Assembly (NCBI GenBank): GCA_965207075.1
Contig: CBDBLO010000002.1
Coordinates: 1,856,001-1,920,000 of the forward strand
Reading direction: 5' to 3'
Length of the DNA: 64,000 nucleotides
Source: Nitrosopumilus sp.
Lineage (GTDB): Archaea; Thermoproteota; Nitrososphaeria; Nitrososphaerales; Nitrosopumilaceae
The notes under the pieces are model-generated. The model searched no databases and was not told the origin of the DNA. It worked only from the letters and a program-made list of their open reading frames with translations. Of this stretch, positions 58,472 to 60,957 are shown one piece after another (positions within the stretch are counted from its first letter, which is position 1; every line of letters starts with the position of its first letter). The translations under genes were made by a program, and so were the position numbers.

Positions 58472-58813
58472 CTGCCGCATGCCCGCGGGCGCCTGCTCAG
58501 GCCGCCGCGGGGCGGGGCAGGACTCTCCCGTGACGGGCGTATCTGTTAGGTGACAAAGAAATCGAATATTCTGCATGTTTGCCACCATCCGTCCAAGCCT
58601 GCTCGGAGTCAGGCCCCGCAACCTGTCCCGCATGCCTGCGACATCAGACGCCAGGTTCACCGTGGCACACTAACAGCGGGAGACAAGGCGAGCCGGCGGG
58701 ACCGGGGGCGCAGCACGTGCCAGGAGGCAGCTGCTGTTGCTGTCGCCGCCGCCACCACCGGTGGCCAAGGAAGCGGGTGTTCTGATGCAGACGCGCCCGC
58801 CGCCACCGCCAGA

Positions 58814-58859
58814 GTTACCCGCAAACTGTCATAGAACTTTATGACAGTTTGCGGGTAAC
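58814..58859. repeat. Palindrome P3 (20 bp perfect arms, spacer GAACTT)
   Basis: GTTACCCGCAAACTGTCATA-GAACTT-TATGACAGTTTGCGGGTAAC. Confidence 0.97.
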
Positions 58860-59255
58860 CGCCGCATGCCCGCGGCACCACACGCACACGGGCAGGAAGT
58901 CCGGCGGCGGGCGCCTAGACGCCCCCTGTCCTGGCCGGCGCACGGACGGCGGGCCTGCCGCATGCCCGCGGGCGCCTGCGCAGGCCGCCGGGGCTCCCGC
59001 CAAACACTGCAAAAATGGGCAGGCTGCCGTGGCACAGTCGCGGCCCCGCCACGCATCTAGTCCGGAATCAGGCCCCGCAACCTGTCCCGTATGCTTGCAG
59101 CGTCAGACGCCAAGTCCGTCGTGGCACACTTTGACGGCGGGGGGCAGGGGGAACCGGCAGAATCGGGTGACGCGGCACGTGTCGGAAGGGTGGCTGCCGC
59201 CTGCTGTGCAGGCCGGAAGCGGGCGTTCCGATGCAGGTACGCCCAGCCACCGGCA

Positions 59256-59301
59256 GTTACCCGGAAACTATCATAGAGCTCTATGATACTTTCCGGGTAA
59301 C
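59256..59301. repeat. Palindrome P4 (20 bp arms, 1 mismatch, spacer GAGCTC)
   Basis: GTTACCCGGAAACTATCATA-GAGCTC-TATGATACTTTCCGGGTAAC. Confidence 0.97.
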
Positions 59302-59571
59302 TATCGCGGCCCGCGGCACCGCACGCACGGGCAGGAAGTCCGGCGGTGGGTGCCCCCGCACACCTCCGGCCCTGGCCGGCACACGGATGGTGGGCCTGTA
59401 CCGTATGCTTGCGGCATCAGACGCTAGATCCACCGTGACTCACTTTAACGGCGGGAGGCAGGGCAAACCGGCGGGACTGGGGACGCAGCACGTGTTGGGA
59501 AGGGACTCCCGCAGGCAACGATCAAGCCGGAAACGAATGTTCCGATGTAGGTACGCTCCCCCGTCGACGAC

Positions 59572-59615
59572 ATACCCGCAAACAATCATAGAGCTCTATG
59601 ACAGTTTGCGGGCAT
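59572..59615. repeat. Palindrome P5 (19 bp arms, 3 mismatches, spacer GAGCTC)
   Basis: ATACCCGCAAACAATCATA-GAGCTC-TATGACAGTTTGCGGGCAT. Confidence 0.97.
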
Positions 59616-59868
59616 CTGCAACGGCCTGCAGCACCGCACGCACGGGCAGGAAGTCTGGTAGTGGGCGCCTGCGCAGGCCGTCGTGGGGGCGGGACCGGCC
59701 CCTCCCGTGGCGGGTGTATCTGTCAGAAGGTGACAAAGAAATCTTTGTTACCTTTGCGCGTTTGCCATCGTCCGCTCCGGCCTGCCCGCAGTCTGGCTGC
59801 CGGGACCCCCGCCAAACACTGCAAAAATGGGCAGGCTGCCGTGGCACAGTCGCGGCCCCGCCACGCAT

Positions 59869-60957
59869 CTAGTCCGGAATCAGGCCCCGCAACCTGTCCC
59901 GTATGCTTGCAGCGTCAGACGCCAGATCCACCGTGGCAAAGCGGAGCTTGTGTCCCTGTATTGTAGCCGATTCATCATAATCGGTTCCCACTGATGGGTA
60001 CAGAAGCATTCCGGTGGAAGTCATCGACAGATTGTTGCCCTCGCGTTCCTGGGATCTCAGATACGAGTATATCTGGTATATGTTCGAGCTTTTCAATATT
60101 TCGCGGTGCCACCGAGTCGTGATTTCCGTGAATTTGGTATCGATTACTATTCGATGCGATCTGTCCGATTTTTCAACAATGATGTCGGTCTTCATTTCAG
60201 GCAGAATTTTGTCTATTCCTGGAGTGTGCGGTTCGGCGTGCCACTCAATCCACTCGCCCAGACGTACTTGCCACTTGTCAAGCACTATGCTGTAAAAACC
60301 ACCCACGGCCCTTTCAAATAGATTTCTTATCAGGCTCTCCTTGCTCCTGTCAGGCAAAACCACGTCCAGACGCCCGGACTCCTCCGTAGGTATCGTGAGA
60401 TCCCATGCCAGCTGTGCGGCGGCAATCATTCTCGCATCGTCCTGGCCGTGCCTTGCGTTCCTAATGCTGGCCGTATGCTGCCTTGCGTCAAACGAATTAG
60501 AGACTCCGTACCTTGCAAATGCGGCGGCGTCGATGCGGCAGCGCCGCTTGAGATTCTTGTCCTCGACGATCGCACCCAGTCGATCCAATGCCGCCATGAC
60601 GAACCTGTTTCTTGGGACGTCCACGGTAAACTCGTCAAAGCTGCACGCTATCTTGCCCCGCTGGAGCAGGTGCCGGCGTTTTGTACGGATGTGGTTGATG
60701 CGCCCCCTGACACGGGTCAGGTCGGCCTGTCTGCGCTGCAGCTCGTGGGTGAGCATGCGCCGCAGGCGCCGCTCCACCTCTGCCGTTAGGATCTCTGCAA
60801 CCAGATCCGGGATTTTGTCGGGATTCTGCTCCGCGGCAACCCTTTTTTCGGGCGTGTCCCGCAGCTTTTTGTAGAGATCCGACGCATACAGCATCAGCAG
60901 CCACAGGTTTCTGACCGGTATCTTGCCGATGGCTTCCGCGCCTGACTGTTCACTCAA
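59869..60957 (-). CDS. mcrC: McrC restriction endonuclease subunit
   Basis: IPVRNLWLLMLYA N-terminus, LFE..V, KTD...VIDTKF (PD-D/ExK), YQIYSYL, GMLLYP; TTGA overlap with the mcrB stop. Confidence 0.95.
   Translation of the reverse strand: MSEQSGAEAIGKIPVRNLWLLMLYASDLYKKLRDTPEKRVAAEQNPDKIPDLVAEILTAEVERRLRRMLTHELQRRQADLTRVRGRINHIRTKRRHLLQRGKIACSFDEFTVDVPRNRFVMAALDRLGAIVEDKNLKRRCRIDAAAFARYGVSNSFDARQHTASIRNARHGQDDARMIAAAQLAWDLTIPTEESGRLDVVLPDRSKESLIRNLFERAVGGFYSIVLDKWQVRLGEWIEWHAEPHTPGIDKILPEMKTDIIVEKSDRSHRIVIDTKFTEITTRWHREILKSSNIYQIYSYLRSQEREGNNLSMTSTGMLLYPSVGTDYDESATIQGHKLRFATVDLASDAASIRDRLRGLIPD

Follow-up and report, generated by a model that had tools for sequence, protein, structure and literature searches.

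The window analysed here, a stretch of 64,000 nucleotides (nt) from a Nitrosopumilus sp. contig (CBDBLO010000002.1, positions 1,856,001 to 1,920,000; assembly GCA_965207075.1), holds the left end of a tRNA-integrating Nitrosopumilaceae element whose right end lies past the window. Its genes run in the order tRNA-Lys, a 427-residue integrase, a repeat array of about 1.8 kb, mcrC-mcrB on the minus strand and an actin-like gene. Inside the array, between the tRNA-Lys-linked tyrosine integrase and mcrC-mcrB, the 3' end of mcrC recurs in three extra copies. These tails are best explained as neutral passengers of tandem amplification from one captured junction, a reading to which we assign a probability of about 0.8. 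What looks constrained in the repeat unit, and apparently functional, is a palindrome.

The three copies exist where an initial annotation of this DNA had placed them, with the translations it had given (blastn E 4e-26 to 2e-11, computed against the window and 42 related integrase loci from species-representative genomes). Its claim of a single shared breakpoint also holds: the gene reads GTGGCA/AAG, copies 1 and 2 GTGGCA/CACT and copy 3 GTGACT/CACT, the slash marking the break. Every tail abuts segment A of the repeat at one identical point, with homologous sequence beyond, and the junction is the same homologous one in all four copies, counting the tail of a related element, locus L001. The motif TV[DN]L forms the C-terminal end of 120 of 120 McrC homologues (the best 120 of 4132), and the tail aligns with Escherichia coli McrC; the copies thus derive from mcrC and not the reverse. 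That mcrC acquired its tail from the repeat is ruled out, since its homologues end alike.

Several details of the first description are corrected here. Copy 2 sits within a 144-nt duplication (58983-59126 matching 59795-59938 at 95%), which also includes 74 nt past the mcrC stop. Copy 1 has no stop and its frame continues for 74 codons; copy 3 ends after codon 15 through a deletion, and its frame continues for 52 codons. In-frame stops lie 1 codon upstream of copy 1 and 0 codons upstream of copy 3, and the frames have no internal indels across the matched codons. The left flank of unit 1 (about 58010-58083) is weakly tail-like, with a shuffle p of 0.055 and 3.8% of real sequence windows scoring equally (p 0.11 without the last 8 nt; overall 0.04-0.11), and is possibly a fourth, older copy.

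Each unit of the array carries its own deletions, several of them at short look-alike stretches. Segment D is the sequence that directly follows the mcrC stop, and T is the mcrC tail itself. Segment C is missing from units 1, 3 and 4, and D from units 1, 2 and 4. Unit 1 has also lost T, and unit 2 most of A and part of B. In unit 4 the final third of T is gone as well: a deletion there joins look-alike stretches of B and T and cuts copy 3. Unit 5 has every segment and continues into mcrC. Between units, the flanks are 68-81% identical.

Table 1. Features of the repeat array and its surroundings, in window coordinates.
Feature	Position	Strand	Remarks
Degenerate tandem array, five units	58076..59868		full unit: A - palindrome - B - C - D - mcrC tail (T)
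mcrC tail source	59869-59938	-	end of intact mcrC
Tail copy 1	58604-58667	-	87.5% over 64 nt; E 1.9e-17; codons 1-21
Tail copy 2	59057-59126	-	94.3% over 70 nt; E 3.9e-26
Tail copy 3	59395-59437	-	90.7% over 43 nt; E 1.8e-11; frame-matched homology to 59439 (15 codons)
Unit 1 left edge	58076..58085	+	GCGGCAAA/CT; 7/8 nt match the gene's GTGGCAAA/GC
Palindrome 1	58210..58255		hairpin z -9.6
Palindrome 2	58428..58471		hairpin z -5.1
Palindrome 3	58814..58859		hairpin z -9.1
Palindrome 4	59255..59302		hairpin z -7.0
Palindrome 5	59573..59614		hairpin z -4.7
tRNA-Lys(TTT)	56214..56288	+	likely integration site (left end); ARAGORN, Rfam
Tyrosine recombinase, 427 aa	56458..57741	+	Nitrosopumilaceae element family; homologues named integrase
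mcrC, intact, 362 aa	59869..60957	-	PF10117; NF007277 346.9 bits (cut-off 338); E. coli McrC E 8.6e-18
mcrB-like AAA+ protein, 576 aa	60954..62684	-	AAA_5; NF008457 E 2e-71, below cut-off
Actin/MreB-like gene	62765..63652	+	also in related elements L003, L007 and L011

Support for a single origin comes from L001, whose integrase is 93% identical and located at tRNA-Lys CTT. It carries three palindromes that match units 1-3 in order, together with a B-to-A deletion join common with the window and, at 7802-7854, a tail orthologous to copy 1 in the same position. Such orthology of units and deletion joins indicates a common origin in one junction. Beyond its last C segment, L001 continues with the flank of an AbrB-family gene instead of D and mcrC; the contig stops 2.9 kb past the integrase, and the absence of mcrC refers to the neighbourhood of the array. 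Searches of the 42 loci by tblastn gave no match for McrC or its tail, and for McrB only two 25-residue P-loop matches.

A profile search with one spurious reading frame of the array recovered four proteins, one of them the window's own. P0241 is 87% identical across copy 3, unit 5 and D and implies the same truncated copy 3; another element therefore has the same arm. In P0244, as in L001, the AbrB flank comes after C; P0242 is a further palindrome unit. Two right-hand states thus follow segment C, each seen twice: the mcrC side (window, P0241) and the AbrB side (L001, P0244). The mcrBC-free join of the latter two falls after C and not at GTGGCA, the point at which the initial annotation had expected mcrBC-free alleles to be joined. 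With other genes now adjoining it, the L001 tail marks mcrBC as a former neighbour of the array in that lineage; defence cargo therefore turns over at the array.

The cleanest test of selection compares copy 1 with its L001 orthologue, because their whole divergence postdates capture. Over 17 codons they differ by 6 non-synonymous and 3 synonymous changes, a ratio of non-synonymous to synonymous divergence (pN/pS) of 0.83, against 0.25 for the integrase. These counts are compatible with neutrality (p 0.72-1.0), and the identity of the two tails, 42/51, is no different from that of the spacers (p 0.85). From the gene, copy 1 differs by 5 non-synonymous and 3 synonymous changes. Counting each distinct change across all copies once gives 7 synonymous and 10 non-synonymous changes (p 0.29-0.62 versus the neutral expectation). 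V3T in copy 2, V3A in L001 and I12M in copy 1 alter columns invariant in the best 120 homologues, none of which has A9V; the normal stop is lost in copies 1 and 3 and in the L001 tail, leaving three of four copies without a stop or truncated. The changes appear compatible with neutral decay at the spacer rate, in a test limited by its small counts. On this balance of synonymous and non-synonymous change, which the initial annotation had named as a way to choose between its readings, the copy 1 pair and the distinct changes fit neutrality, whereas the pooled counts given below do not.

One tail has been in contact with the gene since the amplification. Copy 2 and its D segment are identical to the gene end along 117 nt, and all 7 differences lie at the two edges (P 4e-5 under random placement, post hoc); outside this tract, units 3 and 5 are 74% alike. 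Judging by its sequence, the tract is a recent conversion or double crossover between gene and copy 2. Two sites set the gene and copy 2 apart from the remaining copies, both by synonymous differences, which favours transfer from gene to copy.

We therefore propose the following course for the tandem amplification, which the initial annotation had kept as its null explanation and which fits best the shared junction, the orthologous units of L001 and the neutral-compatible changes. mcrBC would have come to adjoin a palindrome array in an element integrating at tRNA-Lys. A single tandem duplication, with its end 22 codons before the mcrC stop, would have fused mcrC there to the beginning of an array unit, perhaps through a G(C/T)GGCAAA microhomology; the mcrC tail was thereafter part of the repeat, as the junction common to all copies shows. 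Unequal homologous recombination may then have multiplied the unit, while deletions trimmed the units differently. A later single exchange, probably from gene to copy, would account for the 117-nt tract, and L001 would have been left with a tail and no adjacent mcrC when the arm to the right of the array was exchanged or lost. The copies would not be expressed as McrC ends and would decay like the spacers. The left edge of unit 1 is a candidate for the microhomology of the first duplication, or for the remnant of an older tail copy, on weak statistics.

Several observations weigh against this course. The microhomology at the unit 1 edge is statistically insecure, and the contrast between tail and integrase is not significant (Fisher p 0.29), in a comparison of low power. 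Copy 2 is a nearly intact tail, stop included. The pooled differences between gene and copies, 15 synonymous and 14 non-synonymous, show a synonymous excess (p 0.007); we weigh them less, since they count shared changes more than once and include the gene's own branch, which is under selection. Mosaicism or homoplasy in the five tails has borderline support (3 extra steps, p 0.05-0.07). Finally, Val1 of copy 3 and of L001 also occurs in the McrC proteins P0001 and P0003, and Gly14 of L001 also in P0001, which could reflect capture from another allele. Parallel change is at least as likely, because Val1 and Gly14 are single transitions, copy 1 has Ala1 where its L001 orthologue has Val1, and P0241, read through another frame, implies Ala1 in the orthologue of copy 3.

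The palindrome is the main lead of this analysis: constrained, and found in one element clade only. It measures 46-48 nt; its outer and inner arms are constant, whereas the 2-3 nt gaps and the centre vary. Sixteen copies occur, in the window (58210-59614), L001 (7342-8062), L003 (9504-9550 and 13454-14143) and L004 (11640-11750), and none in the other 39 of the 42 loci, which confines them to the closest integrase clade; 11 of the 42 loci have less than 3 kb of sequence right of the integrase. L041 ends in segment A just short of the expected site, and a weight matrix from the 16 copies found no further copy in 686,764 positions. Orthologous palindromes are identical at 132/138 positions, versus 419/521 in their flanks (p 4e-6), and 19 of 40 departures from the consensus pairs are mirror-compensated. 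In L003, a single inverted palindrome module lies left of the integrase, about 65 nt upstream of a small membrane-protein open reading frame (ORF).

With AbrB-family and actin-like genes as neighbours, the palindrome is rather probably a binding site for an element-encoded dimer, be it an operator, a partition site or a transfer site, and AbrB/MazE-family proteins are candidates for the binder. Genes of this family number 1-3 per element (L001 8389-8767; L003 3539-3850, 14672-14977 and 16208-16552; L004 14770-15135), several are preceded by short tandem repeats, and the window has none of them. On an informal comparison, a dif-like or attC-like identity of the palindrome did not seem to fit in spacing and box order. 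We found no description of such a palindrome array in the papers on these elements that our searches reached, mostly open-access main texts, including PMC6563490 and PMC8371274.

The initial annotation had also considered repeated insertion and excision of mcrBC-like cassettes, with a gene 3' end left each time as a scar; as a site-specific process, this now seems decidedly improbable. The fixed junction would suit it, as would the L001 tail without an adjacent mcrC, the Val1 and Gly14 shared with other McrC alleles and the cargo right of the integrase, which differs among the window, L001, L003, L004 and L041; in its accessible text, the report on PAISt and bacA (PMC4057263) offers a precedent. 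Yet the junction has no inverted repeat and folds no better than shuffles (z +1.0 for the gene, -0.25 for copy 2), no matching site lies upstream of mcrB or at the tRNA end in the window to 64000 (best local matches at most 8 nt), so that no repeat bounds mcrBC there, and the integrase family is located at tRNA genes, directly upstream in 24 of 42 loci. The orthologous units and deletion joins of L001 likewise indicate single-junction descent. A weak form of the scar idea keeps the L001 relic in its favour, but not the position of the mcrBC-free join. The available text of PMC8371274 describes an archaeal integrase whose recombination is of low specificity and homology-like, on segments down to 104 bp, and by analogy the window integrase could assist exchanges. 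Very improbable, in turn, is a silent reservoir in which recombination between mcrC and its copies swaps the McrC C-terminus and so tunes the nuclease. Same orientation and 45-144 nt of homology permit crossovers, the 117-nt tract shows that gene and copy 2 have exchanged, and the matched codons are free of internal indels; but a crossover into copy 2 past codon 3 leaves McrC unchanged, and one into copy 1 or 3 puts 74 or 52 residues in place of 22. The copies have lost invariant residues, most are without a normal C-terminus, and their changes are compatible with neutrality. A crossover between direct copies also removes the units in between, and switching would therefore be one-way. Nor do mcrC alleles with the variant tails appear: none of the five closest McrC representatives (P0001-P0005, 92-63% identical) carries residues private to copy 1 or copy 2, in a comparison of cluster representatives that leaves 90% cluster members and reads outside it, and 0 of 55 candidates for longer proteins show the copy-1 read-through, which is weak evidence. 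Since E. coli McrBC has its target-binding domain at the McrB N-terminus (PMC7680126, in the text available), tail swaps have no evident payoff.

We consider it unlikely, too, that the array is a selected platform on which the cargo arm right of the integrase is exchanged or inverted, the palindromes serving as tyrosine recombinase sites. Their restriction to the window, L001, L003 and L004, their conservation relative to the flanks, the mirror-compensated departures and the two right-hand states after C all speak for it, as does L003, where an extra inverted module and a reversed actin-like gene lie left of the integrase. However, no intact gene lies between palindromes, and the joins observed are in the flanks, outside the palindrome itself. 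The orientation of the actin-like gene differs between L007 and L011, which have no palindromes, and the sites are absent beside most integrases of the family. The conservation is explained just as well by an operator, a partition site or an origin. Mirror changes can also come from self-correction of palindromes. Such a platform is compatible with neutral tails. If it exists, the mcrC tails would be a dated record of defence-cargo turnover in a clade of sponge-type Nitrosopumilaceae elements, and the array would be the functional counterpart in archaea of integron or pdif module shuffling. An assembly artefact is practically negligible: repeats with a 117-nt identical stretch could be mis-joined, but the units are 68-81% alike, and L001 and P0241 independently repeat the unit order and the deletion joins.

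Other searches with the array were negative. Tandem Repeats Finder did not report the array as such, its DNA (58050-59960) matched nothing in plasmid and phage collections, and in an Rfam scan of 55500-60500 only tRNAs reached the gathering score. A promoter and terminator scan of 57700-60000 returned 0 and 0, with bacterial consensus sequences that carry little weight for an archaeon. As an integron the array fails, since only homologous spacers and no intact gene cassettes lie between palindromes, and the search with one array frame led to only four array-derived ORFs. As a CRISPR it fails because its spacers are 170-400 nt long and homologous to one another, and no Rfam repeat match occurs in 55500-60500.

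The 427-residue ORF is identified as a tyrosine recombinase by the names of its homologues and a fold match to XerA and Cre. Pfam, NCBIfam and PDB sequence searches gave no match, while its model resembles XerA, Cre and lambda Int (Foldseek E 1.7e-5); a hairpin-telomere resolvase is not among the listed Foldseek matches. The gene lies 170 nt downstream of tRNA-Lys. The 3' end of this tRNA and the bases after it are common to the window and L001-L004. Integrases 83-93% identical sit at tRNA-Lys(CTT) in L001 (5579-5653) and L004 (9747-9821), and at tRNA-Lys(TTT) in the window; the core of the attachment (att) site is probably the 3' part that these tRNAs share. No direct repeat that would mark the right attachment site (attR) occurs within the window, which stops at 64000. 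Directly 3' of the integrase stop, a conserved stretch (window about 57783-57920) that also occurs in L001, L002, L003, L004 and L041 apparently encodes a Cys-containing peptide of about 45 residues.

mcrB and mcrC overlap by 4 nt, with McrC downstream of the AAA+ McrB. A McrC family member beside an AAA+ McrB is what defines a McrBC type IV pair, and by sequence mcrB-mcrC appears to be one; PADLOC gave no match for McrC. Within mcrB, about 4 copies of a 24-nt repeat (61875-61973) encode a linker of KKKEKAES type that connects the N-terminal region to the AAA+ domain. The window ORF at 63690 resembles an L003 gene adjoining a coupling-protein-like ATPase.

Related elements add some detail. L003 and L004 have different spacers and different cargo, and blastn gave no evidence that these spacers are tails of neighbouring genes. 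Upstream of the L003 integrase lies only a tRNA-Lys 3' remnant with an interruption of about 35 nt (9735-9803), and to its left an actin-like gene, a ParE-like toxin and a coupling-protein-like ATPase (3843-9439), reversed relative to the window; this layout suggests rearranged or tandem elements. Between integrase and array, L003 carries a carbon-nitrogen hydrolase domain protein as cargo (11587-13443), and a similar gene, apparently in two frames, occurs in L041 (672-2659). The L041 contig (CAZXEU010000175.1), 98% identical in the integrase part, is labelled as a Rhodothermaceae bacterium bin and is probably mis-binned archaeal DNA.

Among known systems, silent-cassette or shufflon-type switching of C-termini, as in type I hsdS shuffling, likewise involves partial, promoterless copies of a restriction gene that lie close to its expressed version. 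Unlike shufflons, the window copies are direct, only 15-22 codons long, decayed and without recombinase sites, and they cover no known specificity domain. The alternative tails are neither intact nor visibly under purifying selection (pN/pS 0.83 on 9 changes; 3/4 without stop), and this class is not supported. The mcrB-mcrC pair itself is alike to the McrBC type IV system as its available text presents it (PMC7680126): McrC exceeds its NCBIfam cut-off, and its alignment with E. coli McrC extends through the tail, whereas the window McrB has a different N-terminal region and falls below the equivalog cut-off.

PAISt of Streptomyces turgidiscabies resembles the array in having several copies of a gene 3' end, that of bacA, within a tyrosine-integrase element; according to the accessible text, an 8-bp palindrome at the gene end is there the integrase site and bounds large modules (PMC4057263). 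In the window, by contrast, the junction has no palindrome, the units lie 220-440 nt apart and the integrase is at a tRNA gene. With neither a symmetric core at the junction nor a matching far-side site within the window, gene-end att duplication of this kind is not supported. Thaumarchaeal integrated elements share with ours a tRNA-linked tyrosine integrase, restriction-modification cargo and non-syntenic transfer genes (Krupovic 2019, PMC6563490). In the searchable text of that article, McrB, actin, ParM and AbrB do not occur, "palindrom" stands in a reference title only and no such array is described. The same text (PMC6563490) reports no identified relaxase for thaumarchaeal integrative and conjugative elements, and a conserved cis site could therefore make their transfer, partition or cargo exchange testable.

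The tails alone are an ordinary duplication relic of small importance, and repeated gene ends need not mean programmed variation. Tandem duplication or amplification whose junction falls within a gene, with subsequent homologous expansion and deletion, is a known general mechanism. It likewise yields one repeated junction with a partial gene copy per unit, short look-alike sequences at deletion joins, and neutral decay. Unlike the general case, the unit here belongs to a mobile element and has a conserved palindrome at its core, and the array is common to elements whose integrases have a pS of 0.14, hence old.

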